Shown here piece by piece: positions 10,386 to 63,244 of a stretch of 64,000 nucleotides of DNA. The first letter of the stretch is position 1, and each line of letters opens with the position of its first letter. This stretch comes from SAR86 cluster bacterium (GTDB lineage Bacteria > Pseudomonadota > Gammaproteobacteria > Magnimaribacterales > AG-339-G14), in the NCBI GenBank assembly GCA_028140145.1, contig JAOIOC010000001.1, positions 61,608 through 125,607 of the forward strand, written 5' to 3'. A program made the position numbers and the translations under genes. A model generated the notes under the pieces. That model had not been told where the DNA came from and ran no database searches. It saw only the letters and a program-made list of their open reading frames with translations.

Positions 10386-10403
10386 GTTTCTCCTAGATTT
10401 TTT

Positions 10404-10655: not shown

Positions 10656-10692
10656 AATATCTCCTAATCTAATATTGATAATACTACTTAAT

Positions 10693-11022: not shown

Positions 11023-11293
11023 TTTTATCCCTTAGTTTTCGCCCAGGCTTGAACGAAATAGATGTTCTGGCAGAAATTGTATACTCTTTACCAGTTTTAG
11101 GGTTTCTCCCTGGGCGCGCTTTCTTTTTTAATAAGGAAAAATTCCCAAAACCACTTAATTTCACTTCATCACCTTTTTCTAAACTATTTGAAATTTCAGC
11201 AAAAAAAGAATTTACAAAATCTAGGCAGTCTTTTTTAGGCAAACCCATCTTTTTATGCAAATGATCAGCTAGTTCTAGTTTAGTTATCGCCAT
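11015..11293 (-). CDS. ihfA: Integration host factor subunit alpha
   Basis: 92 aa with LSGFGNF, ARPGRNPKTGKEYTISAR and FKPGRKLRD. Lies downstream of pheT. Confidence 0.9.
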   Translation of the reverse strand: MAITKLELADHLHKKMGLPKKDCLDFVNSFFAEISNSLEKGDEVKLSGFGNFSLLKKKARPGRNPKTGKEYTISARTSISFKPGRKLRDKIV

Positions 11294-11295
11294 TG

Positions 11296-35332: not shown

Positions 35333-36550
35333 TTAGGCGCGAATAATATCGAATTCTTCTTTAGGCTGCAATTTTAAAGAAATAATGTGGATGAAGTAGA
35401 TAATTAAGAGAAAATCTAAACCAAAGTTCCCTCCAGGGGGATTAAAAAAGGATATAAAAACATAAGATAAAATTAGTGGCCTAAAAATATTATTTGTGGA
35501 TTTATATATTCTTAAAAAGAAATATGAAATTAGAATAAATCCAATAAGTCCGAACTCCGCTATTATGTAAATTGGCCCATTAAAAACATCCTGCAGATCA
35601 TCAAGAAGAATTGTTTGACCTCCTGGGCCCATGCCAAAAAGTAAAATTAGAGGGTTAAATTCCAAGAAGTAGAATTGTGTAAGAAATAAAATTACTCTTG
35701 ATCCATTTGTATAATCAAAATTTTGCCAATTTGAATTACTTATGAATTCATTAATCAAAAGAAGTTCTTGATAAACTCTTGTAACGTCTCTCATAAAATA
35801 ATTTTCAGGAATTATAAAAAATAAAAGTATTGAAAAAGGAATTAAATAAAAGAAATATCTGAAATTTCTAAATAAAAAAATAAAAAAAATGTTAGTTAGT
35901 GCGAAAACAACTCCTGTGGCAGAAATAGATAAAGTAAAAGCTAGAAATGAAATTATTTTCATCAAATTACTTTTCGTATCAATTAAAAAGAAATACATAA
36001 AGGTTATCCAAGCAAATATTGAATAATGGGATGGCTCAGGAAAAAGACCTCTCATTCTTGGCCAATTATCTGCAGGATCATGGACTCCAAATGACAGAGG
36101 ATTTAACCCCACAAGATAAATGAGATACAGGAAAATTGAAAAAAATAGGTGAAATTTTAGAAGTTTTATTGAGATTTCAATGAAATCGACATTTTTTCTA
36201 AGTGTTGAGAAAAAATAAATGATGACTAAAGAGTGCATCCAGATAAAAAAAGAAATAAATATAAAGGGTGTTTCGTTTATTGATACTCCAATATTAACCA
36301 GGATATTTCCAATAAAAACTAAAAATAACCATAGAAATAATATAAAAGTAGTTATAGGGATAAAATTTTCCCTTTTATTAATTAATGAAACAACATAAAA
36401 AAAAATTAAGGATAAAAATATCAATATTTCTATGTATCTAAAAGGAATTGAAATCCTCGTGCTTATTCCAAAAGTTAATTGATTAAAGAAAACTGAGAAG
36501 ATTGTGACTATAAACAATAAAGAACTTAAATGTTTTATGCTAATTGTCAA
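35333..36550 (-). CDS. O-antigen ligase/polymerase-family membrane protein (Wzy_C-like)
   Basis: 405 aa with about 10-12 TM helices. A loop RMRGLFPEPSHYS resembles the RxxGxxxxPN motif of the WaaL/Wzy family. Confidence 0.55.
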   Translation of the reverse strand: MTISIKHLSSLLFIVTIFSVFFNQLTFGISTRISIPFRYIEILIFLSLIFFYVVSLINKRENFIPITTFILFLWLFLVFIGNILVNIGVSINETPFIFISFFIWMHSLVIIYFFSTLRKNVDFIEISIKLLKFHLFFSIFLYLIYLVGLNPLSFGVHDPADNWPRMRGLFPEPSHYSIFAWITFMYFFLIDTKSNLMKIISFLAFTLSISATGVVFALTNIFFIFLFRNFRYFFYLIPFSILLFFIIPENYFMRDVTRVYQELLLINEFISNSNWQNFDYTNGSRVILFLTQFYFLEFNPLILLFGMGPGGQTILLDDLQDVFNGPIYIIAEFGLIGFILISYFFLRIYKSTNNIFRPLILSYVFISFFNPPGGNFGLDFLLIIYFIHIISLKLQPKEEFDIIRA

Positions 36551-37563
36551 AATATCTCTCTTAAATTATTGTTTATCTTTTGAAAAAATTTCTCCATAGA
36601 ATTTAGTTTTAAAAATTCATTATATTTATCAAGGTCAATATCTTCATTCATAAGTCTCTTAACTTTTTCAATAAAATTTTCTTTATCGTCTGTTAAATGT
36701 ATGACCTCTGTTTTAACAGAGGTAGATGAAGATAACATAACGACATGCAATCCTGCAGATAAATAATCATATGTTTTTAATGGTATTTCCATATGTGTAT
36801 TTTTCTGATCAATATCAAATGGTATCAAGCCAACTTTGAACAAAGATAATTGCTTTTGTAAATCACTCTTGTTAACGAGGCCATGAAAAATTAGATTTTC
36901 ATGGGAAAATGGAATTTTTTCAGAAAATAAATTAATGACTATACCTGAATCTAAAAGTTGTCTTAAGAAGTTATTGTCAAATTTATTTGATCCAACATAT
37001 ACAGCCTCCTTAAGCTTTTCTTTTCTGGAATAAACTTCTGAAAAATAAGAAGGATTAGGTAAATAAATACTGTTTTTATATTTTCTCGAAGACGAGAGTA
37101 ATACACTCCAAACTTGGCTAGTTTTATTAATCATTTTTGCCAGTTGTTCTGACTCATCTGAAAAAAAATTCAGATAGCCTTCATCATCTGACATTCTATA
37201 AATAAGTTTTTTGAATTTAATCTTTTCAAAAAAGTATGCAGACTGATAGCCCTCAGATATCATCAAATCAAAAGAGAGCCTTTTTGTAGAAAAAAAATAA
37301 ATTGGAATTGAAAAAATATTTCGAAAAAAAATATTTCTTATAGCATATGGAGGGATTAGAGAGATTACATGTAACTGTCTAAAGAATCCTTTTATCAATG
37401 CTTTAAGTTTATATCTGTTATGTTTTCTAAAAATTGATATAGATAAAGGGTAAGTGACCCAACATACAGAATGGCCATCATTTACTAGCCCCTCATAAAT
37501 ATAATGAATATTTACTTTTTTATCAGACTCTAAAAGATGACTAGTAAGAATAACAATTTTCAT
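36547..37563 (-). CDS. Putative GT-B glycosyltransferase
   Basis: Only the C-terminal EIPLKTYDYLSAGLHVV, resembling the GT-B donor-binding motif, is recognisable. Confidence 0.45.
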   Translation of the reverse strand: MKIVILTSHLLESDKKVNIHYIYEGLVNDGHSVCWVTYPLSISIFRKHNRYKLKALIKGFFRQLHVISLIPPYAIRNIFFRNIFSIPIYFFSTKRLSFDLMISEGYQSAYFFEKIKFKKLIYRMSDDEGYLNFFSDESEQLAKMINKTSQVWSVLLSSSRKYKNSIYLPNPSYFSEVYSRKEKLKEAVYVGSNKFDNNFLRQLLDSGIVINLFSEKIPFSHENLIFHGLVNKSDLQKQLSLFKVGLIPFDIDQKNTHMEIPLKTYDYLSAGLHVVMLSSSTSVKTEVIHLTDDKENFIEKVKRLMNEDIDLDKYNEFLKLNSMEKFFQKINNNLREIF

Positions 37564-37564
37564 T

Positions 37565-39028
37565 TTAAAAATTTTTGTAAACTCTAATTGTATTTTTTTT
37601 CTTTAAGCCAAACGATCCATAGTAATAATCCTCAAAAGAAGATGAAAGTTTAAAATCATCTAAAAATGTATCTGGAATATTACTTACTCCGGTATTTAAG
37701 CCAAGCTCAATTCCTTCATTTTTAAAGAGATGATAAAGTTCATTAGAAATAAAAATAACTTTTTTATCTCTTAAAATTTCTTTGAAGTTGACCCTGGCTT
37801 GATAGGAATAAAAATCATTTTCTTTAAAAATAAACCAAAAATTATCTGGCCCTACAATAGTGACATCTTGTGTGAGTTCAATTTCTTGACTTGCTTTGTC
37901 GTAAAATCCTCGAAGGTCTGAGGAGTAAAAATTCACTGCATTATAAAGTTGAAAAAATATTGAGTATGAAAAGAGGACGATCAATGACAGCTTCAATATA
38001 GTTTTTCTTTTTTTATAAGAAATACTTATTAAGAAAGCATATAAAAAGGGAAAAAAAATAATCAAATAATGGTGATTCATTCTCCCTAATAAAATATAGC
38101 CAGTTAATCCTCCTAAAAACATCCAAAATGAAGACCTAAATTTTGAATTTTCTAAACTTCTCTTTTCCAAGAAGTAATAGACGCCGATTAAAAGAAATAT
38201 AGGAAAATGTAACCACCGATATAAGGTACTATCAAATCCAAAAAGAAATATCCAAGAAAACCTATCGATCAATGAAGTCGAAATAACTTCATTAGCAAAT
38301 TCTAGGGAATTTTTAATTTCTTGGTAATGATTAATATTATTAAAGATAACAATTAATAATCCAATAAAATAACCTATCAAAAAAAACATTAATTTATGGA
38401 AATTACTTTTTCTAAAGAACTTTTCATCTTTAGAAAGCTCATAAAATATCAAAATAAATATAAATATTTGACTACTCAAATGAATGTCTATCGAGATAGA
38501 AATAAATAAACCAGATGCAATAATTTTTAGAATAGTTTGATTTTTAGATGTAAATAAATACAAAGACATGAATCCAGTTAATAAAACTAAGATTTCTGGT
38601 CTTGCTGAATGAGAACTAAGCAAAAAATGCTCTGAAAAAGAAAGAAATAATACTGCTAGAAGACATATAGTTCTTTCAAAATTTATGTTTCTTAATATTA
38701 AATAAAATAGGATCAAAACCGGGAAAGAGATAATCCATGATAAAAACCTATGCGCATAAATGAGGTTCGTAAAATACAGCATGAAATTTCCATACAAAAG
38801 ATCCATTATTCTTCCATGGCCTATTGCCAGACCAGGCTCTCTGCTCAAAACATCCAGTAAGTAACCTTCTTTAGCAAAATTGTAAGCAAATGAGGCAATC
38901 CATAGACTGTCTCGGTAATAAATCTTAAAAAAATAAAGAGAAAAGTAAGAATAAATTAAAGAGGAAAAAATAAAGATAATTAATAGCTTGTCAACCGAAG
39001 TAAATTTATCAAATTTCAAAGACTTCAT
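37565..39028 (-). CDS. GT-C-type membrane glycosyltransferase (ArnT/PMT/GtrC-like)
   Basis: 487 aa with about 11 TM helices. An early loop YYRDSLWIASFAYNF resembles the first-loop acidic motif of GT39/GT83 enzymes. A soluble C-terminal domain of about 110 aa follows. Adjacent to a GT2 and a GtrA gene. Confidence 0.55.
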   Translation of the reverse strand: MKSLKFDKFTSVDKLLIIFIFSSLIYSYFSLYFFKIYYRDSLWIASFAYNFAKEGYLLDVLSREPGLAIGHGRIMDLLYGNFMLYFTNLIYAHRFLSWIISFPVLILFYLILRNINFERTICLLAVLFLSFSEHFLLSSHSARPEILVLLTGFMSLYLFTSKNQTILKIIASGLFISISIDIHLSSQIFIFILIFYELSKDEKFFRKSNFHKLMFFLIGYFIGLLIVIFNNINHYQEIKNSLEFANEVISTSLIDRFSWIFLFGFDSTLYRWLHFPIFLLIGVYYFLEKRSLENSKFRSSFWMFLGGLTGYILLGRMNHHYLIIFFPFLYAFLISISYKKRKTILKLSLIVLFSYSIFFQLYNAVNFYSSDLRGFYDKASQEIELTQDVTIVGPDNFWFIFKENDFYSYQARVNFKEILRDKKVIFISNELYHLFKNEGIELGLNTGVSNIPDTFLDDFKLSSSFEDYYYGSFGLKKKNTIRVYKNF

Positions 39029-39039
39029 TTTGAAGGATT

Positions 39040-39987
39040 TTAAAAATTGATTCTTTCTTTTTCAATTACTAGGGGTTTTTTTCTAACTTGATTAAAAATT
39101 GCCAATATGTATTCTCCCAAAATTCCTATGAAAAATAGCTGAACTCCTCCAAAAAAGAAGAGAGCTACTATAATTGTTGGTATTCCTGCTTGAGAATCAA
39201 CAAACCCAAAGAGCGTCATTATGAAAATTGAAATAGAGTAAAGAATGCTGAGTGAAGAAATTAATAAACCAATAATTAGTGACAACCTTAAGGGAAGTCC
39301 ACTAAAACTTATTAATCCATTTAATCCTTGCTCAAACATTTTTAGAAGACCATTTTGTGATTTGCCGTACTCTCTTGCTCTCCAAGTATATTCAACCCCG
39401 GTAGATCTGAAACCAGCATCAAATGTCATTAACCTCATGAAAGGATTAGCATCTTCAGTTAATTTCATTGCCTCAATTACTTTTTTATCAACCAGTTGAA
39501 AATCTCCTACATTTTCTGGATAGTCGACATAAGTAACTTTCTTTAAAAGCTTATAATAGAGTCTTCGTGAAGTTCTTAAAAAAAATCCTTCCTCTCTTTT
39601 TGCTCTTACTCCATATACAATATCGTTACCCTTTTCCCAAAGTTCAATGAAGTTAGGAATTAATTCTGGTGGATCTTGCATATCAATTGGCATAAACAAA
39701 AGAGTTGCGTCTCCGGAGGAGTTCATTACTCCGTTATAGGTGTTATTCAATAAACCAAAGTTTCTTGAATTAAGTATGATTTTTATATTCTTATCTTTTT
39801 CTGCAATTGATTTCAAAATATCAACAGTTCGATCAGAAGAACAGTTATCACAGAAAATATGCTCATATTCATAATCCTCAAGATTAAGAAAAATATCTTT
39901 AATTGTCTCGTAACATTTTTTAATACCTTTTTCTTCATTAAAGCAAGGAGATATTATTGAAATTAGTTTTTTAGGCATTTTATTCAC
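39040..39987 (-). CDS. Polyprenyl-phosphate glycosyltransferase, GT2 (ArnC/GtrB/DPM1-like)
   Basis: ISIISPCFNEE, CDNCSSDRT and MPIDMQDPPELIPNF, with two C-terminal TM helices. Confidence 0.85.
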   Translation of the reverse strand: MNKMPKKLISIISPCFNEEKGIKKCYETIKDIFLNLEDYEYEHIFCDNCSSDRTVDILKSIAEKDKNIKIILNSRNFGLLNNTYNGVMNSSGDATLLFMPIDMQDPPELIPNFIELWEKGNDIVYGVRAKREEGFFLRTSRRLYYKLLKKVTYVDYPENVGDFQLVDKKVIEAMKLTEDANPFMRLMTFDAGFRSTGVEYTWRAREYGKSQNGLLKMFEQGLNGLISFSGLPLRLSLIIGLLISSLSILYSISIFIMTLFGFVDSQAGIPTIIVALFFFGGVQLFFIGILGEYILAIFNQVRKKPLVIEKERINF

Positions 39988-40343
39988 TAATTTTTATAAA
40001 CAATTTTTTTTAAAAGAACATAAGTTAATGGAACAACAAATATCATGCAGATTAGTTGGGATAAATATTTATTTAGGCTGTTAAAAATTAAAAAATTCAA
40101 AATAGTGAGGTTTAAAAAGTAAATAAAGATATAGATTAATACAAATTTTAAGAAAGGAGAAAAACTTACCTTCTGAAAAACAATTATACCAGTAGAGAAA
40201 TAATTGAAGATTATTCCAAATAGGTAACTTAATGCTAGAGAAACCTCAACCTTAAAGTTTAAAAATATGAAGAAAGAATAAAATCCAAATCCAATCAAAG
40301 TGTTAAGGAAACCTACGGCAATAAACTTTATAAATCTTTCCAA
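39987..40343 (-). CDS. GtrA-family membrane protein
   Basis: 118 aa, four TM helices, N-terminal FIKFIAVGFLNTLIGFGFY. Confidence 0.8.
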   Translation of the reverse strand: MERFIKFIAVGFLNTLIGFGFYSFFIFLNFKVEVSLALSYLFGIIFNYFSTGIIVFQKVSFSPFLKFVLIYIFIYFLNLTILNFLIFNSLNKYLSQLICMIFVVPLTYVLLKKIVYKN

Positions 40344-40350
40344 TATAACC

Positions 40351-41268
40351 TCATTCTGAAATTACTTTTGAATTCTGTTCAATTTCTCTCCATAAATTAA
40401 TTACATCCTCATTGAGGGTTAAGAAGCTTTTAGATTGTCTTAAATTATTTAAAGAATCTGAGATAAATTTTACTCTTCTATCAGATTTAGAGTTTTCAAT
40501 ATTCTCAAACGGATCTACTAGGTTGCAAATAAGTTCATTTGATTTCTTAGATCTGAACCTGCAAATAGAGAATTCCTTTTTAGGTGAAAGAGAGTTTAAT
40601 TCTAATGCAAAAGTAGATTTATTTTCGTTAGAAAATTTAGCTTCCCACCTATATGAACTATTATCTTTATATGTGATCTTAGATTCCAATAAATTACTGA
40701 ATTTAATCTTAGAAAGCAGTGCTATTAATTGGATACCATAAAATCTTATAATTCCTCCACCTTGATCATCTTCTCTTTTCCATGATTCAACCTCATAGGT
40801 GAAGTGATATGCATGGAATTTCCATTTTAAAAAATAATCATCGATTGATTTCTTAGACGAGATAATCAAATCTTTACCCCAAGAAGTATATTGAAATAAA
40901 TACCCTATTGAAAAATTTACTTTTTTTTCTTTCAATAAATTTAATAACTCAATTGATTGATAAGGATCAATTGATAAAGGTTTCTCAAGGAGATAATTTT
41001 TGATATTGGATTTATCTAGTAAATATCTAATTTTAGAATCTTGATCTTTTGGTCTTAATGCCAATACGGCTGTATCGATCTTATTGACGACATTTATCTC
41101 GTCATCATACCAACAGATTTTATTAGCGTATTCTTCAAGCTCCTTCCTAGTACTGAATTTGTCTCTGTATCTTACATGCAAAAATATTTCAATATTATCT
41201 TTCTTTGCAATTGATGGTAGGTATCCATAAAGTCCAAATCCAGATCCGTAGATTATTACTTTATTCAC
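40351..41268 (-). CDS. Gfo/Idh/MocA-like oxidoreductase (divergent)
   Basis: N-terminal VIIYGSGFGLYGYLPS Rossmann-like motif and LLEKPLS (EKP motif). Confidence 0.5.
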   Translation of the reverse strand: MNKVIIYGSGFGLYGYLPSIAKKDNIEIFLHVRYRDKFSTRKELEEYANKICWYDDEINVVNKIDTAVLALRPKDQDSKIRYLLDKSNIKNYLLEKPLSIDPYQSIELLNLLKEKKVNFSIGYLFQYTSWGKDLIISSKKSIDDYFLKWKFHAYHFTYEVESWKREDDQGGGIIRFYGIQLIALLSKIKFSNLLESKITYKDNSSYRWEAKFSNENKSTFALELNSLSPKKEFSICRFRSKKSNELICNLVDPFENIENSKSDRRVKFISDSLNNLRQSKSFLTLNEDVINLWREIEQNSKVISE

Positions 41269-41273
41269 AAAAA

Positions 41274-43706
41274 TTATTTGAAATCTTTAAGTTCAAGGAT
41301 ATTAAAAATTTCTCCTTGATATTTTTCTTTAAGGTAATTTTTAATTTCTTTCTTAATATGCCAAGCTAAATTTATTATTATTGGTGGTTGATTTTTTTTA
41401 CTAAATAAATCTTCATCAGACAAGATTGGGATTCTTGTTCCTGGGACGAAATGGCCTATTTTTAAAGAACCTGGTTTTTCATAAACACATGAAATTACAT
41501 TTTCATTAAGTTCTAAAAGTTTAATTAGTATTGCTGCCCTGCCAGGGAAAGCCTTGCATGAAAGAGGGCCATGTTTCTCGTAGAGACTTAAAATATGTTT
41601 TTTTGTTCTCAGCTTCCAAGAATTGATTTGATCATTCATTGATACGAGATCATCAAAAAAATTTTTTTCGCGAGTAAGTATATCGTTTTTACTTAGATTC
41701 TCTTTTGTTTTCTTTTTTGAAATAAATACTCTTATATTTCCACCATATCTTGAGGGAAACTCAACTGATTGGACTTTTGCCTTCAAAGACTTTGCAATGT
41801 GAATAAAAGAATTGAAGCTATAAGTTCTTGGATGCTCATGATAAAAAGTATCAAATTGATACTTCTCTAAAACCGCACCCAAATAATGATTCTCAATCAC
41901 AAGGACTGTATCTTTGTTAGATAAAATTTCTAAAGAATCTAAGACTTCAGGCAGATTTTCAATATGAGCAAAGACATTTGTAAAAGTAATTATATCTGGA
42001 ACACCATTCTCTCTTAGCACTTTCTTTGCAGTAGCTTTTGATAAATAATTGCCATATGACTTATGTCCCTTATCCTGACATTCTTTGTATGCATTAGTTG
42101 GTTCAATGCCAATTGTCTTACAACCTTTCTGACTAAAAAAGTCCAAGAGACTGCCATCATTGCACCCAATATCTAGAACAGTTTTATTTTTCAGCGTTCC
42201 ACAAAATTCCTCACATGAATTTACTAAGTCACTCATACCTTTCAATACATCAGCTGTAAATCTTGATCTGTAGTGATAGTCAGATGGAAATAATTTTTTC
42301 TTAGGAACTTGATAAATTTGATGGGCAGTAAAACAATTTTTACAATAGGCAATTTTTATTGGATATTCCTCACATATTGAATCTTCCGAAGTAGGAATTA
42401 AATCATCACACATTGGATGATTACCTAAATCAAGGACTGGAGATAATTTTTTTGATCCACAGACTTCACAAGCTTTGATTTGATGTAATTTTTTTGAATT
42501 AATTTGTGATTTTTTATTAATAAAATTATCAAAAGAATTATGAACATGATCAATCATTTCTTTTGTTAAACCATTGTGGCAAGCTATGAGAATACCCCCC
42601 CTCATAACCTTATCTGCATTAATAAAATCATCCGCCTTACCAATACAATTTATATTTTTAAAGCCAGGTTGCCTTAAAATATTTCCTGTAAATATAACGC
42701 GGGTTTGTATGTTCCTCTTTTCTAAATATATTTGTAAATCTGTTCTTGTGAAAGGTGAGGACTCTTTAACAATAAGCGGGTAAGCAAGCCATCCCGAATA
42801 AATGTCATCTTTTTCGTAAGGGAGATCTAAAAATTCTTCATACTTAGAAAAAAATTTTTGATGTTGATTGAATATTTCTCTTCTTTTTTTGATACCTTTT
42901 GAAAGACTTTGCAATTGAGTTAAAGCAAAAGCAGAGCTAATTTCTGATGGTTCTAATTGATATCCCATTTCTTCAAAAATAAACTTTGAATCATAAGTGA
43001 TCCCATCTAATGAAACATTGAACCTATTTTCTATTGACTCGCTGTTATCAAAAAGAGATGAAGATCTCCCCCAAGATCTTAGTAATTTTGCTTTCTTAAA
43101 TAATTCTTCATCATTAAGACATAACATTCCACCATTTCCAGCTCCATTTATAATATGAGAACCATAGAAACTTGTTATAGAAAAATCTGAATATTTTCCG
43201 GTAGAAATTCCTTTTATTTTTGCTCCTAAAGTATCTGCACTATCTTGCAAAACAAGCAGATCATTTTTGTCAGCTATTTCTCGAATTTTTGGCCAATTAC
43301 ATATATTTCCAAGTAAATCAGGCGCAAGAATAGCTTTTGTTTTCCCATTTATTTTTTCTTCAATTAAATTTTCATCGATACAGAGTGTTTTTGAATCTAC
43401 ATCAACAAAGCTTGGGATTAATCCTGATTTTACGATTGGTGCGATAGTAGTAGAAAAAGTTAGAGCTGGAGTTATGATCTCGCTTCCTGGATCTAAATTT
43501 AATATATCCATCAAGATATAAAGTGCCGATGATCCTGAGTTAGTCATTAAACCAAAGTCTTTGTTAAAAAGATTTGATATTTTCTTCTCTAGTTTGACTG
43601 TGTTTCTTCCCATCTGAGTAGAGCTATTAAGGACCTTAAGAACAGCATCTATCTCTTTCTTTCCATGTACACTTTTTGCATATGATACTCTAATATTCTT
43701 TTTCAA
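41274..43706 (-). CDS. Fusion: RfbH/E1-like PMP-dependent NDP-4-keto-6-deoxyhexose 3-dehydratase + NDP-hexose C-methyltransferase (TylC3 class)
   Basis: The N-terminal half has the DegT fold with His in place of the Schiff-base Lys (TSFYGSHIINGAGNGG). The C-terminal half has the Zn ribbon CEVCGS...CKNC, the SAM motif VLDIGCNDG, NVFAHIENL, FDTFYHEHPRTYS, and a C-terminal C-methyltransferase domain. Confidence 0.75.
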   Translation of the reverse strand: MKKNIRVSYAKSVHGKKEIDAVLKVLNSSTQMGRNTVKLEKKISNLFNKDFGLMTNSGSSALYILMDILNLDPGSEIITPALTFSTTIAPIVKSGLIPSFVDVDSKTLCIDENLIEEKINGKTKAILAPDLLGNICNWPKIREIADKNDLLVLQDSADTLGAKIKGISTGKYSDFSITSFYGSHIINGAGNGGMLCLNDEELFKKAKLLRSWGRSSSLFDNSESIENRFNVSLDGITYDSKFIFEEMGYQLEPSEISSAFALTQLQSLSKGIKKRREIFNQHQKFFSKYEEFLDLPYEKDDIYSGWLAYPLIVKESSPFTRTDLQIYLEKRNIQTRVIFTGNILRQPGFKNINCIGKADDFINADKVMRGGILIACHNGLTKEMIDHVHNSFDNFINKKSQINSKKLHQIKACEVCGSKKLSPVLDLGNHPMCDDLIPTSEDSICEEYPIKIAYCKNCFTAHQIYQVPKKKLFPSDYHYRSRFTADVLKGMSDLVNSCEEFCGTLKNKTVLDIGCNDGSLLDFFSQKGCKTIGIEPTNAYKECQDKGHKSYGNYLSKATAKKVLRENGVPDIITFTNVFAHIENLPEVLDSLEILSNKDTVLVIENHYLGAVLEKYQFDTFYHEHPRTYSFNSFIHIAKSLKAKVQSVEFPSRYGGNIRVFISKKKTKENLSKNDILTREKNFFDDLVSMNDQINSWKLRTKKHILSLYEKHGPLSCKAFPGRAAILIKLLELNENVISCVYEKPGSLKIGHFVPGTRIPILSDEDLFSKKNQPPIIINLAWHIKKEIKNYLKEKYQGEIFNILELKDFK

Positions 43707-43762
43707 AACTCTCTCGCAAATCTAGGAGGTTGATACTACATGTTTTCATACAAAAAGAAACA

Positions 43763-44632
43763 TTACGAATTTAAGAAATCAGCTATACCATCATTCAATG
43801 TATAGCTTGGGGACCAAGACCTTGGATTTGGTAAATTAATTTCCATTCTAGGTCTTTCATAAGAAGTTTTTTTTCCATAATGGATGAAATTTGAATAAGG
43901 AAAGTCATCTACTTCCTCAAAAATAGATACTAATTGTTTGAGAGTTACATAATTTTGTGGATTCAAAGAAAATTCATACAACTCACCGTTACTCTCCTTT
44001 TTTCTTACTTGATTCCTAGCTAAAAAAATTCCTTCAACTGCATCTTTTATCTGCAGAGGATTTATGAGTTGATCAGGATGAGTCAATTGAATGATTTTTT
44101 TTGTCTTTTTAATACTCTTAATTAAATTAAAAATTTTTCCTCTTCTATCCCCTCTCCCATACACATCGTAGAGCCTTATCGTAGATATTTTTAGACCATC
44201 ATTTGCAAAAACCTTCATAGTTTCTTCTGCTGCAGTTTTCGAAGCCGCATAAAAATTAGAGGGATTCAAGTTAAGTCTTTCATCAAATTGCCAATATGAT
44301 CCAAAATGAAAAATTTCAGTTTCCGAGGAGTACTTTTTAACTGCCTTACAAACGTAATTTGGCAACAAAATATTAGAGGATACTATTTCATCGATAGTTT
44401 TATATGAATCTGAATAATCAATCTTTGAACCGCAAATAAAAATGCTAGCAATTTTATGATTTCGAATTAATCCCTCTAAATTATCTTGGAAGCTCTTCTT
44501 TTTATTTGGTCTGTAAGAAATGTCAAAAACTATTTCCTCTCTATCTCTTAAAAATAACTCAAGATTTTTGCCTAGAAAGCTTCTCAAACCTATTATTAAG
44601 TTGCTATCTTTTGATAAATTTTTTTTGCCCAT
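43763..44632 (-). CDS. Extended-SDR NDP-sugar reductase/epimerase (CDP-paratose/abequose synthase-like)
   Basis: Degenerate glycine motif IIGLRSFLGKNL and catalytic YAASKTAAEE. Position next to rfbG. Confidence 0.6.
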   Translation of the reverse strand: MGKKNLSKDSNLIIGLRSFLGKNLELFLRDREEIVFDISYRPNKKKSFQDNLEGLIRNHKIASIFICGSKIDYSDSYKTIDEIVSSNILLPNYVCKAVKKYSSETEIFHFGSYWQFDERLNLNPSNFYAASKTAAEETMKVFANDGLKISTIRLYDVYGRGDRRGKIFNLIKSIKKTKKIIQLTHPDQLINPLQIKDAVEGIFLARNQVRKKESNGELYEFSLNPQNYVTLKQLVSIFEEVDDFPYSNFIHYGKKTSYERPRMEINLPNPRSWSPSYTLNDGIADFLNS

Positions 44633-44643
44633 TAAGTCTTAAA

Positions 44644-45753
44644 CTACGAGCATTGAGTGTATTCATTAATTTGCCGAAGAGTGATAGCTTCCATATCTTC
44701 TCCATTTTTATGAGACAAATACCAGTCAATTAAATTATCAAGAGTTTCTTTAAGAGTTAATTTAGGTTCCCAATAAAGTAAATCTTGAGCTTTATCACAA
44801 TTTAATTCTAAGTATTTTGCTTCAGGCAGAGGTTCTTTTTCTGGTTTGGTCCAGCCTACTTTTTCGGGCCAAGAACTATCTATGTACTCTACAATCCACT
44901 CTACCGTTTTCAAATCATAATCTTTTGGACCAAAGTTCCAGCCTGAACAATAAATTGAATTTTTACTATCATAAATTTTTTCCGCAAGCATTAAATAGCC
45001 GCTTAAAGGTTCAAGGACAAATTGCCAAGGCCTTACAGAATTTGGATTTCGAATAATAGGTTTTTTATTGTTAATGAAACTAGTTATTACGTCTGGAATT
45101 AATCTATCTCTTGCCCAATCGCCCCCTCCGATGACATTTCCGGCCCTTACACTAGCCAAGAAAATATTTTGGTTGGAATTCTCTTTATTAAAATAAGACT
45201 TATTATAAGAGTTAGTAATAAGTTCTGCACATCCTTTGCTGCAACTATAAGGATCAGAGCCGCCGAGTCGATCGCTTTCCTTAAAGGACTTTTCCTCATT
45301 ATCATTTTCGTAACATTTATCGCTGGTGACATTTATAGCAATTTTGTCTGCATCAATATGCCTTAATGCTTCAAAAAAATTTATAGTTCCAATGATGTTG
45401 GTTGAAAATGTATCATAAGGATTAGCATAGGATTCATTAACAAGGGGTTGTGCTGCTAAATGAAAAGCTATGTCAAAATTAGACCTTTTAACTATCTTTT
45501 TAAAAGAATCTCCGTCACGTATATCTCCAAAATGACAATCTGTATTATCTTTTAAGTTTAAAATCGAAAATAAGTTTCTATCTTCTTCAGGGGCTAAAGA
45601 ATAACCAGTTACTTCAGCCCCCATGTTTAGTAACCAATAAGATAGCCAACTCCCTTTAAAACCAGTATTTCCTGAAATAAATACTTTTTTATTCTTCCAA
45701 AAGTCTTTATTTACTTTTCCCATAGTCTCCAAGGAGCGCTGTTGGTTCTCCAT
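44644..45753 (-). CDS. rfbG: CDP-glucose 4,6-dehydratase
   Basis: FWKNKKVFISGNTGFKGSWLSYWLLNMGAEVTGYSL and YSCSKGCAE. The likely real start is the internal Met at 45723 (MGKVNKDFW). Confidence 0.88.
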   Translation of the reverse strand: MENQQRSLETMGKVNKDFWKNKKVFISGNTGFKGSWLSYWLLNMGAEVTGYSLAPEEDRNLFSILNLKDNTDCHFGDIRDGDSFKKIVKRSNFDIAFHLAAQPLVNESYANPYDTFSTNIIGTINFFEALRHIDADKIAINVTSDKCYENDNEEKSFKESDRLGGSDPYSCSKGCAELITNSYNKSYFNKENSNQNIFLASVRAGNVIGGGDWARDRLIPDVITSFINNKKPIIRNPNSVRPWQFVLEPLSGYLMLAEKIYDSKNSIYCSGWNFGPKDYDLKTVEWIVEYIDSSWPEKVGWTKPEKEPLPEAKYLELNCDKAQDLLYWEPKLTLKETLDNLIDWYLSHKNGEDMEAITLRQINEYTQCS

Positions 45754-46484
45754 AGTTCCTCTAGATTATTTTTATCTCTTAAGGTGTCCATTGGCTGCCA
45801 GAAGTTCTTATGAAAAAACGCTCGCATCTGATTATTAGATGCAATTCTTTCCATAGGATCTCTCTCCCATATAGTTTGGTCATTATCAATGTAATCAATT
45901 ACTTTTGGGGAAAGAACAAAAAAACCTCCATTTATCCATGAACCGTCTCCATCCGGCTTTTCCTTGAAACTTAAAATTTTATCTTCTTCTAGCTCAAGTG
46001 AACCAAACCTTCCTGGAGGAAGTACAGCGGTAGTCGTTGCAAGTTTTTTATGTGATTTATGGAAATTAATTAAATCTCGAATATTTACATCTGACAGCCC
46101 GTCGCCATAAGTAAAACAAAAGTCCTCTTTATCTAAATAATTTTTTACCCTCTTTAATCTGCCTCCGGTCATAGTATCATTTCCAGTATCTACTAGAGTT
46201 ACTCTCCAAGGCTCTGAAGAATTTGAGTGGATGATTGTTTCATTCTCAACTAAATCTATGGTCATATCAGAGGAGTGAAGAAAATAGTTTGCAAAATATT
46301 CTTTAATTAAATAACCCTTGTAACCACAGCAAATGATAAATTCGTTTATTCCATAATATGAATAGATTTTCATAATATGCCAAAGAATTGGTTTGCCCCC
46401 TATCTCGATCATTGGTTTTGGCCTCAAATTAGTTTCCTCGCTAATCCTAGTACCAAGACCTCCAGCCAGTATTACAACTTTCAC
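45711..46484 (-). CDS. rfbF: Glucose-1-phosphate cytidylyltransferase
   Basis: [58 protein letters not shown] and a C-terminal FWQPMDTLRDK. Confidence 0.9.
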   Translation of the reverse strand: MKVVILAGGLGTRISEETNLRPKPMIEIGGKPILWHIMKIYSYYGINEFIICCGYKGYLIKEYFANYFLHSSDMTIDLVENETIIHSNSSEPWRVTLVDTGNDTMTGGRLKRVKNYLDKEDFCFTYGDGLSDVNIRDLINFHKSHKKLATTTAVLPPGRFGSLELEEDKILSFKEKPDGDGSWINGGFFVLSPKVIDYIDNDQTIWERDPMERIASNNQMRAFFHKNFWQPMDTLRDKNNLEELWRTNSAPWRLWEK

Positions 46485-47566
46485 AGATTTTCCTTAATGA
46501 ATTTAATTTGGTTTAAGTCAAAGTTACCATGAATAGGTAAACTAAAAAGCTCTCTATCCGATATCCAAGCAAAACCATCTTCATCTCCTTGATTTAGGTA
46601 ATTGAATGCTTTCAATTTAGGTAAGGCAATTGGGTAATGAATGCCGGTCTCTATTCCAGCATTCGATAGTTTTTCTCTAATTGCATCTCTTCTATTAGAT
46701 CTAACCACAAATAAATGGAATACGTGTCTGACATTTTCTTTAATATTGGGTAATTTTATTTCGTCAATATCACTTAATTGTTTGATATATTCCATAGCAG
46801 TTTGAATCCTTACTTTTGTCCACCCCTCTAGATGTTTAAGTTTGACACTTAAAATAGCTGCTTGTATTCCATCAAGTCTAGAATTTCTTCCTTCAAACTC
46901 ATGGTCATACTTAGCTATTCTTCCATGATTGGCAATTTTTTTACATTTTAAATAAAGCATTTCATCATTTGTAATAATTGCTCCAGCATCACCAAATGCA
47001 CCAAGATTTTTTCCTGGATAGAAGCTAAAACAACCTAAGTCCCCAAATGTTCCAACTTTTTTTCCCTCATACTCTGCTCCATGAGCTTGCGCACAATCTT
47101 CAACTACCTTCAGAGAATGATTATTTGCTATCTCTATGATTTCTTTAATTTGGCAAGGTTGGCCATACAAATGGACTGCGATTATTGCAGAAGTATTTTT
47201 TGTAATTCTTTTCTTAAGATCATCTAAGTCAATATTATAATCAAACGGACTTACATCGCAGAAAACAACCTTAAAATTATTTCTTGATATTGCTTCAGCT
47301 GATGAAATAAAACTATTTGCAGGGACAATAATTTCACTACCAACAGGAAGATTTAATGCTTCAAGGGAAATTTCCAAAGCATCAGTTCCATTTCCAACGC
47401 CCAAACAATATTTAGACTCATGGTATGTTTTAAATTTTTCTTCAAATTCAATAATTGAATTTCCTCCAACAAAAGAAGACTTAGATATTGTTTCTGAGAT
47501 AGCAGAATCAATTTCATCTTTGATTGACAAATACTGCTGATGTAAGTCCAAAAATTTTATCTTCAT
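46481..47566 (-). CDS. DegT/DnrJ/EryC1-family PLP aminotransferase (WbpE-like)
   Basis: [18 protein letters not shown], and [16 protein letters not shown] with the catalytic Lys. Confidence 0.85.
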
Positions 47567-48153
47567 ACTTGTTCAACTTTCCCTATGATTTTTGCTGGAT
47601 TCCCAGCAACTATACTAAAATCAGGAACATTTTTGGTTACTACTGAACCAGCACCAACTATAGAATGTTGACCAATGACTATCGATGGTAAAATCGTTGA
47701 GTTTGCTCCCAAAACAGCAAATTTCCCAATTTTTGGGCCTTTTAAATTTTTTTTTGAATCTGGTCGATTTGGGAACTTTGAATTGGTAAAGACAACATTT
47801 GGTCCAATCCAACTATTTTCTTCAAGAACGCTATATTCCGGGATAAAAACCTGAGAATGTATCCTAACGTTATTTCCAATTTTTACGTTATGTTCTATTA
47901 CAGAATGCGTTCCAACTGAGACATCATTTCCAATTTGATTATTCTCTCTAATATTGGCCTTATTACCAGTAATAAAATTTTTACCGATATCATTTCCCTG
48001 ATAAATGTATGTCCCGGAGCGAATGTAAGAATTGTTACCAATTGAACATTCTCGATTTGCTTCTTTTATGGGAATGCCTACTATACAAAATTCCTCAATC
48101 AAAACATTTTCACCAAGTGAAACATCTGGATAAATTATGTAATTACCTTTCAT
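47563..48153 (-). CDS. Left-handed beta-helix (hexapeptide) N-acetyltransferase (WbpD-like)
   Basis: Repeated [LIV]-G-x4 hexapeptide pattern throughout. Lies between the aminotransferase and oxidoreductase genes. Confidence 0.8.
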
Positions 48154-48167
48154 CTTTTCTAAATTTT

Positions 48168-49223
48168 TTAGTTTCCAAGCTTAGTTTCAGGAATTTCCGA
48201 AGACATATAGACTTCTTTTCCAGTCTCAATTGAGTGATAAATTGCGTTGATAAGTTGTAAACTTTTTCTACCCTCTTTTCCATCAACGATATCTTTTCCA
48301 TCATTGTTAATACAGTCAACAACACTATCATAATAAGACTTATGTCCAAATCCATATACATTTGGCGGATTTTCAGAAAATCTTTCTATTACTTCCTTAT
48401 CATCAGCAGTAGAATCCTCGAAATTCCATGTATTCATTTTATTTACAGAGAACCCACCGATTACAACGCTTCCTTTTTCCCCCATTATAGAAAGTGAGCC
48501 TTCTAAATCTTTGGGTCTTGTAGCTGTAGTTGCTTCGATGATTCCTAAAGAACCATTTTTAAAATTTAAAATAACTACAGCAGTATCTTCAGTTTCAATC
48601 TTTGCAATGGCTTGAGTCGATCTAGCAAATACTGAATCTACTTCGCCAAGCATCCACTCTAGAAGATCAATATGATGACTCGCTTGATTAGTAAGAACCC
48701 CCCCATCATTCAACCAAGTACCTCTCCATTCATCTTGATCATAATATTCTTGATGTCTTGCCCATCTAACTCTCGTAGTTCCCATAAAAATTTTGCCGAA
48801 TCTATTTTCTTCTATTGCTTGACGTAGTTTTTTGACTGGTACGTTAAACCTATTTTGCTTTACAACAAAAAGTAAACATTTATTTTTTCTACAGGCTTCA
48901 ATCATTAAATCTGCATCTTTCAATTTAAGCGCCATTGGTTTCTCGACAATGATATGTTTTCCATATTTAGAAAGTTCTATAACATTGCTAGCATGCATCC
49001 CGCTAGGTGTTAAAACTACCGCGACATCAATATCTTCTGAAAGCATCATTTTATGCATATCTTCGTAGTAGGGAATATTGTATTTACTTGCAATATCAAT
49101 ACATTTTTCTAAATTTGGATCGCAAACAGCAACTAATTTTGCACCTTTGATATGATTTTCCCCTAGTAGCTGAGAATGACGAACTGCTATCCTTCCACAA
49201 CCTATTAAAGCAAATTTAAGCAT
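48168..49223 (-). CDS. Gfo/Idh/MocA oxidoreductase (WbpB-like UDP-GlcNAcA 3-dehydrogenase type)
   Basis: [22 protein letters not shown], and the gene order with WbpD/WbpE-like genes. Confidence 0.8.
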
Positions 49224-60769: not shown

Positions 60770-60772
60770 TGA

Positions 60773-61726: not shown

Positions 61727-61730
61727 ATGA

Positions 61731-62489: not shown

Positions 62490-62490
62490 A

Positions 62491-63228: not shown

Positions 63229-63244
63229 TTTTTGATTATATACT

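Follow-up and report, generated by a model that had tools for sequence, protein, structure and literature searches.

The question raised by this region of the SAR86 cluster bacterium genome is whether a set of genes for a CDP-activated sugar supplies the GtrA, GT2 and GT-C proteins encoded beside it. The window, i.e., the whole stretch of 64,000 nucleotides analysed, is a SAR86 surface-polysaccharide locus, and we consider it rather probable that the block at 37565-46484 is a complete three-component system for glycosylation outside the cytoplasm, with its donor carried on CDP instead of UDP. The initial annotation had listed nine contiguous co-directional genes, no more than 56 nt apart. The coordinates, direction and gaps are as described, but there are eight open reading frames rather than nine; since one of them is a fusion of two enzymes, these eight carry nine enzyme or transport modules. 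All lie on the minus strand, as does every feature discussed below, with rfbF and rfbG overlapping by 43 nt, followed in order by gaps of 11, 56, 5 and 7 nt, a 1-nt overlap and a gap of 11 nt. The earlier domain calls for every listed ORF were reproduced by profile searches, complemented by structure prediction and fold search for the 487-aa protein. The block is embedded in a polysaccharide locus, likewise on the minus strand, that exceeds 40 kb (~22.4 kb to at least 64 kb of the window), and promoter and terminator scans returned nothing above chance that would mark the block as a separate operon. WbpB/D/E-like genes lie directly upstream of the block.

Synthesis of the CDP-hexose is assigned to two proteins, both of which match their equivalog models well above the cutoffs. 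RfbF (glucose-1-phosphate cytidylyltransferase, 257 aa, 45711..46484) matches TIGR02623 over its full length with 465 bits (cutoff 300), and RfbG (CDP-glucose 4,6-dehydratase, 369 aa as ORF, 44644..45753) matches TIGR02622 with 462 bits (cutoff 278). The latter match begins at residue 18, and the true start of rfbG may be internal since its ORF runs into rfbF. By established family chemistry RfbF makes CDP-D-glucose and RfbG makes CDP-4-keto-6-deoxy-D-glucose, the compound to which glucose-1-phosphate and CTP would be converted in the first step of the pathway we propose.

The membrane proteins at the other end of the block are a GtrA-family protein, a GT2 and a GT-C. The first (118 aa, 39987..40343; PF04138, GtrA_DPMS_TM, 49.5 bits with a cutoff of 26.1) has four hydrophobic segments, the predicted transmembrane helices, and is a candidate polyprenyl-phosphate-sugar flippase. 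The GT2 (Glycos_transf_2; 315 aa as ORF and 312 aa in NCBI records, 39040..39987) is a polyprenyl-phosphate glycosyltransferase of the GtrB/ArnC type, which aligns full-length with GtrB sll0501 (5EKE) at 176 bits (217 bits with a family profile) and with ArnC at 103 bits (140 bits with the profile), the alignments spanning the juxtamembrane and two C-terminal TM helices. GtrB residues R122, D157 and R200 are kept as R128, D162 and R205. At the DxD motif it has P100-I-D102, and we treat the activity of the GT2 as assumed because the first Asp is replaced by a Pro that is invariant across the clade. The characterised GtrB and ArnC relatives known to us take UDP-sugars as donors (PMC4728340), whereas gene context suggests that the SAR86 GT2 would load a CDP-sugar onto undecaprenyl phosphate.

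The 487-aa protein (37565..39028), which has a C-terminal soluble domain, gives a weak PMT profile match. The earlier description of it as GT-C-like was borne out by an AlphaFold2 model (pLDDT 78, pTM 0.84), for which Foldseek places GT-C enzymes in 22 of the best 25 PDB matches and subunit-U chains of GPI transamidase in the remaining three. The GT-C matches include ALG12 (E 8e-6, TMq 0.57), ArnT (TMq 0.59-0.61), PglB, AglB, ALG9, Pmt4 and AftA. An invariant Asp40 is found just past TM1 in the motif 'FYRDSxWxAxxAYN', and the protein may well be a periplasmic transferase that uses a polyprenyl-phosphate sugar.

Whether the GT2 tracks CDP-sugar genes was examined in 80 GTDB species-level loci anchored on GT2 relatives, taking 9 kb around the GT2 as the neighbourhood and counting over the 52 loci with at least 6 kb on both sides (GT2 identity 46-98%). 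RfbF homologues of 56-70% identity are present in 44 of the 52 and RfbG homologues in 42, together with a TylC3-type C-methyltransferase (CMT) in 41 and the 305-aa GFO-like reductase in 39, usually directly upstream of the GT2. Where the GT2 is at least 60% identical (n = 34), the corresponding counts are 30, 28, 33 and 32. The proposal that the CDP-hexose genes feed a GtrB-type GT2 thus survived the comparison of neighbourhoods that had been suggested as its test, as run for the GT2. The genes that do travel together across the wider family are those for RfbF, RfbG, CMT, reductase and GT2; GtrA and this particular type of GT-C do not.

The usual gene order is RfbF-RfbG-CMT-OxR-(GtrA)-GT2, with a large multi-TM protein next in many loci, and it is seen in Bradyrhizobium, Mesorhizobium, Bosea, Tardiphaga, Coxiellaceae, Legionella and Aquirickettsiella as well as in Myxococcota, Pirellula, Bdellovibrionaceae, Omnitrophota and Methylophilaceae; overall, GT2-anchored loci with CDP genes occur in several phyla and dozens of bacterial species. 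This canonical cassette is without any dehydrase, and in its minimal form no glycosyltransferase other than the GT2 was recognised in the conserved gene families, to which annotation was confined. A second group of loci places members of the GT2 clade (46-58% identity) beside a canonical E1-type RfbH and YerE-like or transketolase-like branching enzymes, a pairing which suggests that the whole clade tracks CDP-activated branched deoxyhexoses. GtrA homologues are found in 12-16 of the ~80 loci, and the large membrane proteins next to the GT2, at the GT-C position, vary by lineage and have no Pfam match. Since GtrA is sporadic and the GT-C family changes between lineages, the three-component architecture is conserved in kind, not in sequence. 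The SAR86 GT-C family is itself rare (8 homologues in 5.8 billion proteins), and the two relatives whose surroundings were examined each have rfbF, rfbG and a GT2 nearby, in locus L093 even with different tailoring genes.

A sceptical reading of the block is that two unrelated modules happen to be adjacent, with the CDP-sugar being used by a cytoplasmic Leloir glycosyltransferase and the GtrA/GT2/GT-C set adding a common UDP-sugar. Classical Gtr systems do decorate a glycan with such a sugar, e.g., glucose, and all characterised GtrB and ArnC relatives known to us use UDP-sugars. The surrounding locus also holds a GT4, two GT9 and a 338-aa glycosyltransferase, any of which could in principle use a CDP-sugar, and O-antigen loci routinely mix pathways, as the WbpB/D/E-like genes illustrate here. 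Against this stand the linkage of the GT2 to RfbF and RfbG across phyla and to CMT and reductase in nearly all close relatives, the usual fixed order, with no second glycosyltransferase recognised in the conserved families, and the recurrence of the same linkage with an independent fusion (locus L003, below) and with the GT-C family in L093. Chance adjacency cannot account for such a pattern, and we regard two separate modules as quite improbable. A single system would fit best, and the SAR86 cassette is a derived variant of the widespread RfbF-RfbG-CMT-reductase-(GtrA)-GT2 core and not a one-off.

What this variant has gained is an RfbH-like dehydrase and an SDR, with a recent fusion of dehydrase and CMT. 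A sister SAR86-like marine lineage (L091/L092) shares the block but keeps the two enzymes unfused, giving nine separate genes (with a GtrA call in L092 alone). The SAR86 fusion ORF (810 aa, 41274-43706) matches the Pfam profiles DegT_DnrJ_EryC1 (263 bits) and Methyltransf_13/23/14. Its N-terminal domain (residues 1 to ~405, 42492..43706) is identified by profile and by solved relatives as an RfbH/E1-like PMP-dependent 3-dehydrase, the best relative being E1, CDP-6-deoxy-L-threo-D-glycero-4-hexulose-3-dehydrase (3BCX, 206 bits, full length), with ColD matching at 139 bits. Dehydrases are told from aminotransferases by a His in place of the Schiff-base Lys, and the SAR86 domain has this His ('SFYGSH') along with the surrounding PMP-site motifs. 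E1 combines this His with Fe-S cysteines, whereas the SAR86 domain has the E1/ColD-type His without them: the segment aligned to the Fe-S Cys stretch of E1 reads RSWGRSSSLFDNSESIENRF and contains no Cys. The first description of the domain as an RfbH-like, E1-type PMP dehydrase is therefore right as to family and His, but this is not a canonical E1. No E3 gene (Fer2 / FAD_binding_6-type) was found in the scanned 14.8-64 kb of the window, and since the His is kept, the Fe-S cysteines are absent and E3 is missing from this interval, ColD-like dehydration is the more probable chemistry. The domain would likely remove the C3 hydroxyl by this E3-independent route, with an amino donor recycling PLP to PMP; alternatively, a general cellular reductase could serve.

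The 3-hydroxyl would instead be retained if the RfbH-like domain were inactive, regulatory or engaged in another PMP/PLP reaction, the product then being a 6-deoxy-C-methylhexose of the evalose, virenose or vinelose type, presumably as in the canonical cassette. That cassette makes do without a dehydrase, and there is clear orthology between its CMT, GT2 and reductase and those of SAR86 (54-59%, 60-70% and ~30-37% identity); moreover, the Fe-S-less dehydrase subfamily is without a characterised member, and the loop that follows the His has one residue more than that of E1. We nevertheless judge retention unlikely, given that the domain is full length with its strong match to E1, its His and its PMP-site motifs, that several lineages retain the subfamily at 46-71% identity (71% between the SAR86 domain and the unfused 398-aa gene in L091), always alongside rfbF/rfbG-type genes, and that the domain co-occurs with an extra SDR, dehydrase plus reductase being the classical pairing of 3,6-dideoxyhexose pathways.

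The C-terminal domain (residues 406-810, 41274..42491) is a TylC3/TcaB9-type SAM-dependent sugar C-methyltransferase, Methyltransf_13 representing the zinc ribbon. It matches the D-mycarose 3-C-methyltransferase 4RV9 with 125 bits and TcaB9 with 104 bits over its full length, keeps CxxC...CxxC, 'DIGCNDG', 'FAHIE' and 'YHEH', and shares 54-59% identity with the free-standing CMTs of canonical cassettes and 63% with its unfused counterpart in L091. A word-index search found just one further full-length fusion (P0002, 38% identity), which lies in L003 in the order rfbF-rfbG-fusion-SDR-GT2-GtrA and is independent of that in SAR86. The domain would methylate the carbon adjacent to the 4-keto group, most likely C3. 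Action at C5, as in NovU, a C5-methylating member of the TylC3 family, or on another intermediate would give a 3,6-dideoxyhexose that carries a 5-C-methyl group or is branched in some other way; the 4-keto group has C3 and C5 as its neighbours, and comparison of domains and motifs does not discriminate regiochemistry. The closest solved relatives, however, are all 3-C-methyltransferases (TylC3-type 4RV9, TcaB9 and KijD1), and to our knowledge the 6-deoxy-C-methyl sugars of bacterial glycans are all 3-C-methyl, so that we give C5 or another site little credence. With methylation and dehydration occurring in either order, the fusion would yield CDP-3,6-dideoxy-3-C-methyl-4-ketohexose, and the final product is probably a 3,6-dideoxy-3-C-methylhexose.

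Two reductase-like enzymes are encoded in the block, and the simplest pathway requires one. The short extended SDR (289 aa, 43763..44632; Pfam Epimerase, 61 bits) is a candidate CDP-sugar 4-ketoreductase or epimerase, with YxxxK (Y-AAS-K) and the upstream Ser present, a degenerate Gly-rich motif ('IGLRSFLG') and weak matches to RmlD and WbjC-type reductases. Its L091 orthologue is 45% identical and in the same position, and tblastn (E<1e-6) found no homologue in the non-SAR86 GT2-anchored loci; the SDR is part of the dehydrase+SDR insertion that is peculiar to cassettes of the SAR86 type. The 305-aa protein (40351..41268) is a divergent Gfo/Idh/MocA-family NAD(P) oxidoreductase, its Pfam GFO_IDH_MocA N-domain match of 22.8 bits falling just under the cutoff of 24. 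The profile of its family (A3, 25 sequences) matches only GFO-family PDB structures (best DgpA2, E 4e-6), and GxGFGxYG, LEKP and WK..GG are invariant in the family. We infer that it is the 4-ketoreductase of the C-methylated CDP-sugar, although reduction at C4, possibly with epimerisation, may be carried out by this protein, the SDR or both.

Two genes beyond the GT-C, outside the initial coordinates, may extend the cassette. A soluble putative glycosyltransferase (338 aa, 36547..37563; GumK_N / TuaH-like, GumK_N at 31.4 bits) has orthologues of 44-48% identity in L091/L092 and L093/L094, where they immediately follow the GT-C; because it travels with the GT-C it is a possible acceptor builder, and we include it tentatively. 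Membership is weaker for the ~10-TM protein that follows (405 aa, 35333..36550; ten hydrophobic segments), in which no Pfam domain was found even at E <=1. It has a 58% identical orthologue in L091, and in L093 a protein of equal size but without detectable similarity stands at this position, which is occupied in every relative. A role as a Wzy- or ligase-like partner is conceivable.

In the remaining steps, the GtrB-like GT2 would pass the completed sugar on from CDP to undecaprenyl phosphate at the cytoplasmic face, GtrA would assist the lipid-linked sugar across the membrane, and the GT-C would put it on an LPS-, O-antigen- or capsule-type glycan made by the surrounding locus. A fold or family is established for each protein of the block, as is the conserved linkage of its genes; gene context is what points to this sugar and its donor, and the acceptor is likewise our proposal. 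No paper on a characterised CDP-sugar to polyprenyl-lipid system of this kind was found in the literature searched, and the RfbF-RfbG-CMT-reductase-(GtrA)-GT2 core is apparently widespread and uncharacterised. In SAR86, the probable role of the block is to assemble on CDP a rare, methyl-branched deoxy sugar, which then passes to a membrane lipid and on to a surface glycan outside the cytoplasm.

The eight reading frames of the cassette (37565-46484, minus strand) are all present where the initial annotation had placed them, namely rfbF (45711-46484), rfbG (44644-45753), an SDR (43763-44632), a fusion of an RfbH-like protein to a C-methyltransferase (41274-43706), a reductase (40351-41268), gtrA (39987-40343), a GT2 glycosyltransferase (39040-39987) and a 487-aa GT-C-like protein (37565-39028). 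Nine genes had been claimed there, and the number falls to eight, one of which is a two-enzyme fusion; the close packing that had been described (gaps of 56 nt or less) agrees with the measured spacing, which varies between an overlap of 43 nt and a gap of 56 nt. That overlap is the one of rfbG with rfbF, and the family match of RfbG begins at residue 18; the GT2 frame starts at a GTG with a 1-nt overlap with the gtrA stop codon, and public records give the protein 312 aa. The start codons of these two frames are uncertain. The gene order of the cassette is also found in the assemblies GCA_902524645.1 and AG-337-I17 (single-cell and metagenome-assembled), and the GT2 is 100% identical to an NCBI protein of the SAR86 cluster. 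Scans around the block for promoters and terminators that would delimit it gave counts at or below the shuffled expectation.

The genes opening the pathway are well described by existing models, with RfbF scoring 465 bits against an NCBIfam equivalog cutoff of 300 and RfbG 462 bits against a cutoff of 278. They are followed by the SDR, a 289-aa short member of the extended type with YxxxK. Its counterpart in L093, a relative with the same GT-C family, resembles it weakly (24% identity, E 2e-7), and the SDR that comes after the fusion in L003, a locus with a 38%-identical fusion, has no detectable similarity to it. The 305-aa reductase is harder to place. Members of the Gfo/Idh/MocA family have as hallmarks an N-terminal Rossmann fold with EKP and a C-terminal alpha/beta domain with GGG...H. 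The N-terminal domain of the 305-aa protein reaches 22.8 bits against a GFO cutoff of 24 and its C-terminal domain has no Pfam match, while a profile of 25 members of its family finds GFO structures only (E 4e-6 to 1e-2). LEKP and GG are invariant in this family and the downstream His is in the consensus, with the preceding Asp replaced by Phe. We would place the protein as a divergent Gfo/Idh/MocA member or as a sister family.

The N-terminal half of the fusion has E1, the CDP-6-deoxy-L-threo-D-glycero-4-hexulose-3-dehydrase (3BCX), as its best relative at 206 bits, and its 'SFYGSH' aligns with 'SFYPAH(220)' of E1, which puts a His four residues past 'SF'. This is the position of the Schiff-base Lys in aminotransferases, and a His there is the hallmark of 3-dehydrases; an ordinary 4-aminotransferase is ruled out for the DegT domain since it carries His and not Lys at this site. 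The E1 region that holds the [2Fe-2S] cysteines (WGRDCYCxxGxxxxCxxRF) reads 'WGRSSSLFDNSESIENRF' in the fusion, with no Cys. Close relatives of this half (46-71% identity) all have 'SFYGSHxIN...' and 'WGR(S/R)SSLF', again with no Cys, and canonical RfbH homologues have 'SFYPAHHITMGEGG' and retain the Cys motif. The absence of the cysteines is a trait of this RfbH-like subfamily. The NCBIfam RfbH model gives 278 bits, under its cutoff of 423. A search of the reading frames of 14.8-64 kb for an E3 partner (RfbI/AscD/DdhD), which resembles ferredoxin-NADP reductases and has a 2Fe-2S domain, found no protein with a Fer2, FAD_binding_6 or NAD_binding_1 domain. Canonical E1/E3 chemistry can be set aside as the default because both the Cys cluster and an E3 gene in this interval are missing, and for the same reason we infer a ColD-like, E3-independent dehydration. 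The RfbH-like domain of the initial annotation departs from a canonical E1, as it has the His and lacks the Fe-S cysteines and, in 14.8-64 kb, an E3 partner.

Two known systems frame this half of the protein. ColD, the GDP-4-keto-6-deoxy-D-mannose 3-dehydratase of colitose biosynthesis, aligns with it over the full length at 139 bits, and likewise has His for Lys, no Fe-S cluster and no dedicated reductase, but acts on a GDP-sugar, whereas the window protein resembles E1 more closely and has a CDP-sugar gene context. The CDP-3,6-dideoxyhexose pathway of Salmonella and Yersinia (RfbF/DdhA, RfbG/DdhB, RfbH/E1/DdhC, RfbI/E3/DdhD, RfbJ/RfbS) shares with the window equivalog-level RfbF and RfbG, an E1-like dehydrase domain with His for the PLP-binding Lys and a nearby short SDR like RfbJ/RfbS. 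The window differs from it in lacking the E1 cysteines and, in 14.8-64 kb, an E3, in having a C-methyltransferase fused to the dehydrase and an extra GFO-type reductase, and in a product that would be loaded onto Und-P instead of being used by a Leloir transferase in the cytoplasm.

The other half of the fusion (residues 406-810) had been called a C-methyltransferase, and this call is confirmed: PF08421, PF13489 and PF08484 all score above their cutoffs, and the half aligns full length with 4RV9 and TcaB9, keeping the zinc ligands (CxxC...CxxC) and the Glu/His pair ('FAHIE', 'YHEH'). It has the zinc ribbon, SAM domain and C-terminal domain of TylC3, TcaB9 and KijD1. Those enzymes are stand-alone proteins that act on dTDP-sugars in secondary metabolism, whereas the window domain is fused and lies in a CDP pathway to a cell-surface glycan. 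The fusion is rare, as a word-index search returned only two other full-length proteins (96% and 38% identity), and two-domain proteins make up about 3 of the best 150 among 45,368 matches in an exhaustive search of representatives. In L091 and L092, the same locus in a sister marine lineage, two neighboring genes encode the dehydrase and the methyltransferase separately, at 71% and 63% identity. Because it is rare, and because its parts lie unfused side by side in these relatives, we conclude that the fusion arose recently by the joining of neighboring genes.

Two further loci also have RfbH-like genes. In L007 (ERZ25039524:contig_56875, 10001-12160) an RfbH-like protein, P0010, is 50% identical to the window N-terminal domain, and its C-terminus runs into a CxxC zinc motif of methyltransferase-like appearance with a Methyltransf_23 fragment gene next to it; this is probably another dehydrase-methyltransferase fusion, split by a frameshift or an assembly error. 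The groundwater MAG GCA_900206355.1 (L004, 8053-15872) has the order rfbF, rfbG, RfbH-like gene, SDR, YerE-like ThDP enzyme, HAD and HpcH aldolase, with SAM synthetase and SAH hydrolase genes just upstream and a gtrA gene about 6 kb downstream. Its RfbH-like protein belongs to the Fe-S-less subfamily, and the locus hints at more branched CDP-sugars in bacteria of the candidate phyla.

The three genes at the end of the cassette had been read as GtrA, an ArnC/GtrB-type GT2 and a GT-C-like protein, and each reading was reproduced. GtrA (118 aa, 4 hydrophobic segments) matches PF04138 at 49.5 bits against a cutoff of 26.1. Residues 9-308 of the GT2 align with residues 28-325 of GtrB (5EKE) at 176 bits, covering the juxtamembrane part and the two TM helices, with hydrophobic segments at residues 224-285; ArnC gives 103 bits. 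The functionally tested GtrB residues R122, D157 and R200 (PMC4728340) correspond to R128, D162 and R205 of the GT2, and these are invariant in an alignment of 25 sequences of its clade. The 487-aa protein has a marginal PMT match, and its AlphaFold2 model (pLDDT 78, pTM 0.84) finds GT-C enzymes as 22 of the 25 best Foldseek matches in the PDB, among them ALG12, ArnT (TMq 0.59-0.61), PglB, AglB, ALG9, Pmt4 and AftA, the other three being GPI-transamidase subunit-U chains. Its family also has an invariant Asp directly past TM1. The protein therefore has a GT-C fold, and would be the transferase that uses the polyprenyl-P-sugar. In the catalytic Arg/Asp/Arg of a GT2 matched over its full length, the GtrA-family 4-TM protein, the GT-C similar to ArnT, ALG12 and PglB and the gene order GtrA-GT2-GT-C, the trio is like the Gtr and Arn systems. 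It differs from them in its gene context, which speaks for a C-branched deoxyhexose activated by CDP in place of UDP-Glc or UDP-Ara4FN, and in its GT-C, which is of a tiny family that has no Pfam model. A 338-aa GumK_N-like putative glycosyltransferase comes directly after the GT-C in every relative (44-48% identity) and is followed by a membrane protein (about 403 aa, about 10 TM segments). The acceptor may be built or polymerized by this pair, which may belong to the functional unit.

Whether the CDP pathway feeds the GT2 was judged from the neighborhoods of the GT2. Relatives of the GT2 fall into 7,331 protein clusters at E<=1e-20, and a search on an alignment of such relatives, with one genome per GTDB species, gave 80 loci at 46-98% GT2 identity. 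Genes were counted by tblastn within 9 kb of the GT2, because simple ORF calling went wrong in GC-rich loci (spurious opposite-strand frames, with L003 garbled), in the 52 loci that extend 6 kb or more on both sides, 34 of which have a GT2 of at least 60% identity. RfbF is near the GT2 in 44 of the 52 loci and in 30 of the 34, RfbG in 42 and 28, the C-methyltransferase in 41 and 33, and the 305-aa reductase in 39 and 32. The recurrent order is RfbF-RfbG-CMT-reductase-(GtrA)-GT2, after which many loci have a large protein with multiple TM segments from any of several families (about 775, 577, 605 and 545 aa for those beside the GT2 in canonical loci), and this core is carried by Bradyrhizobium, Mesorhizobium, Bosea, Tardiphaga, Coxiellaceae, Legionella, Aquirickettsiella, Methylophilaceae, Myxococcota, Bdellovibrionaceae, Pirellula and Omnitrophota. 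The GT2 is the sole glycosyltransferase recognized among the conserved gene families of the minimal cassette, flanking reading frames being outside this annotation, and a Pfam scan of ten large membrane proteins encoded beside the GT2 elsewhere gave no match.

In a second group, with GT2s at 46-58% identity, RfbF and RfbG are accompanied by an SDR and by an RfbH of the canonical type that has the Cys motif. The branching system of this group is a YerE-like ThDP enzyme, a transketolase in split form or a pair resembling DmpF/DmpG, and enzyme sets of this kind make C4-branched 3,6-dideoxyhexoses, of which yersiniose is an example. L003 has the order rfbF-rfbG-fusion-SDR-GT2-GtrA, and the GT-C family, which has 8 homologues, is found in L093 near rfbF, rfbG, SDR and GT2 genes with no methyltransferase or dehydrase there. 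The locus counts together with L003 and L093 thus indicate that the GT2 clade tracks CDP-activated deoxyhexoses, most of them branched. The initial annotation had proposed that the CDP-sugar genes feed the GT2; the pattern named as speaking against it, in which one set is conserved without the other in most relatives, does not hold for the GT2, with RfbF and RfbG in 44 and 42 of the 52 GT2-anchored loci. A CDP-sugar donor for the GT2 is accordingly argued by gene context, and the simplest reading is that the clade would load CDP-activated deoxyhexoses onto polyprenyl phosphate. To our knowledge, the characterized GtrB/ArnC/DPMS-type enzymes use UDP- or GDP-sugar donors in every known case.

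The GT2 sequences themselves also depart from those enzymes. GtrB has 'NDGS' and ArnC 'DDGS', whereas the clade has 'DN(A/C)S', with Asn48 in the window GT2; both enzymes have 'DAD' where the clade has 'PxD'. Of the metal-binding DxD of GtrB (D94-x-D96), the GT2 keeps the second Asp as D102 and has at the first a Pro (P100) that is invariant in the clade. Both changes occur in 71 of 81 GT2s of related loci. Positions of this type contact the nucleotide in GT-A enzymes generally, so the changes fit an altered donor, of which we regard the signature as suggestive. The Asp-to-Asn change in 'NDGS' is also seen in the GT2s of L003 and L093. As a general marker of a CDP context it was rejected, as the CPR-type GT2 of L009, a CDP-context enzyme on a CPR-like contig, keeps 'DDGS' and the canonical motifs, and the motif is therefore a signature of the clade and no proof of base specificity.

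Judged by their similarity to the canonical genes, the methyltransferase domain (54-59% identity to the stand-alone methyltransferases of 56 loci by tblastn), the GT2 (60-70%) and the reductase (about 30-37%) of the window are orthologues. Relative to the canonical order, the SAR86 cassette has an extra SDR and dehydrase pair between RfbG and the methyltransferase, two enzymes that are classically paired in pathways to 3,6-dideoxyhexoses. One of the two reductase-like enzymes, the SDR or the 305-aa protein, would reduce C4, and the methyl group would be placed at C3 or, less probably, at C5. We therefore take as the most likely product CDP-3,6-dideoxy-3-C-methylhexose, with the exact sugar a tentative choice to which we give somewhat less than an even chance. 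Methylation could come first, with the tertiary 3-OH then eliminated, or dehydration could come first, with the C3 methylene or enamine then methylated; either order would lead to the same 4-keto intermediate, and the fusion might methylate the enamine intermediate of the dehydrase directly. We consider the overall mechanism of the cassette fairly probable. The full proposal, in which the GT2 clade comprises the first CDP-sugar polyprenyl-phosphate loaders, marked by 'DN(A/C)S' and 'PxD', on a widespread route to GT-C enzymes, with the SAR86 fusion making 3,6-dideoxy-3-C-methylhexose, is more doubtful still than the identity of the sugar, and is put forward as a possibility.

CDP-activated branched deoxyhexoses are known from Gram-negative bacteria, namely CDP-yersiniose (YerE/YerF) and the CDP-vinelose of Azotobacter. 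Yersiniose has a two-carbon branch at C4 that is made by a ThDP enzyme, and vinelose retains its 3-OH. Relatives of the window GT2 adjoin YerE-like ThDP enzymes and E1-type RfbH. We know of no description of vinelose genes, and of no polyprenyl-phosphate GT2 linked to either sugar.

The cassette is part of one long minus-strand polysaccharide locus that runs from about 22.4 kb to the 3' end of the window, where GC is about 30%. Directly upstream of rfbF lies a WbpB/WbpD/WbpE-like trio (46481-49223, minus strand: a 361-aa DegT aminotransferase, a 196-aa hexapeptide acetyltransferase and a 351-aa GFO oxidoreductase), and further downstream come genes for UDP-sugar 6-dehydrogenase and UDP-GlcNAc 2-epimerase (28049-30423, minus strand). 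These belong to pathways other than the CDP cassette and look like a WbpA/B/E/D/I-type pathway to a 2,3-diacetamido uronic acid. A 556-aa heparinase II/III-like protein and a 708-aa protein in which a zinc-type alcohol dehydrogenase domain is fused to a GFO oxidoreductase lie side by side (30417-34210, minus strand), and both are kept in the sister locus L091. On the same strand, a 248-aa protein (23341-24087) joins CTP_transf_like cytidylyltransferase and mannose-6-P isomerase-type cupin domains; this architecture also occurs in the related loci L008 and L009 at about 18.6-19.5 kb, and reading frames that cluster with it adjoin the GT2 in L049 and L050. The stretches 49228-51513 and 53291-55854 (minus strand) hold a 447-aa DUF7033 protein, a 313-aa Acetyltransf_6 protein that resembles FemAB/GNAT, and two proteins (511 and 342 aa) that gave no family match. 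A second nucleotide-sugar-like module (58772-63925, minus strand) combines a CTP_transf_3 cytidylyltransferase and two genes of the NTP_transferase family with a HAD phosphatase, a D-2-hydroxyacid dehydrogenase and an HpcH/HpaI aldolase, and may lead to a keto-deoxy acid activated by CMP or to some related unusual sugar. Elsewhere the locus has two GT9 genes, one GT4 gene, an ABC transporter and a Bac_transf gene of the initiating type.

Every part of the architecture is of a known family. A three-component system of the Gtr/Arn type is joined in it to a CDP-deoxyhexose pathway of the Rfb type and to a methyltransferase of the TylC3 type, and the functional assignments are drawn from homology and gene context. 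What appears to be new is the link from CDP-sugars to polyprenyl phosphate, seen in a cassette that is conserved and widespread, the RfbH-like subfamily that lacks the Fe-S cysteines with its methyltransferase fusion, and the predicted sugar. The full-text literature gave no description of any of these three, an absence that is no proof of novelty, and searches on a CDP-fed polyprenyl-phosphate GT2, a CDP-sugar C-methyltransferase, vinelose and the SAR86 O-antigen returned nothing relevant. As far as we know, neither 3,6-dideoxy-3-C-methylhexose nor a biosynthetic route to it has been reported. Sugars with a 3-C-methyl branch are described as uncommon (PMC9912281), and the only proposed route to a related sugar in the full-text literature searched is the derivation of virenose from GDP-mannose (PMC3204966, PMC3539893).

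If the proposal is correct, the CDP-linked clade would widen the donor range of GtrB/ArnC/DPMS-type enzymes, and would open the rare C-methyl and other C-branched sugars of LPS to genetic study. Glycoengineering would gain new parts from it: a 3-dehydrase for CDP-sugars that works without E3, a C-methyltransferase for CDP-sugars and a CDP-dependent enzyme for loading Und-P. The hypothesis can be tested directly, since the canonical cassette, which has no dehydrase, is found in the culturable and genetically tractable Bradyrhizobium (B. liaoningense and B. huanghuaihaiense among them), Mesorhizobium, Bosea and Tardiphaga. Periplasmic three-component glycosylation serves surface-antigen variation and resistance to phages and antimicrobial peptides in many bacteria. 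For SAR86, an abundant uncultured marine clade, the cassette indicates unusual surface sugars in a polysaccharide island that looks strain-variable.
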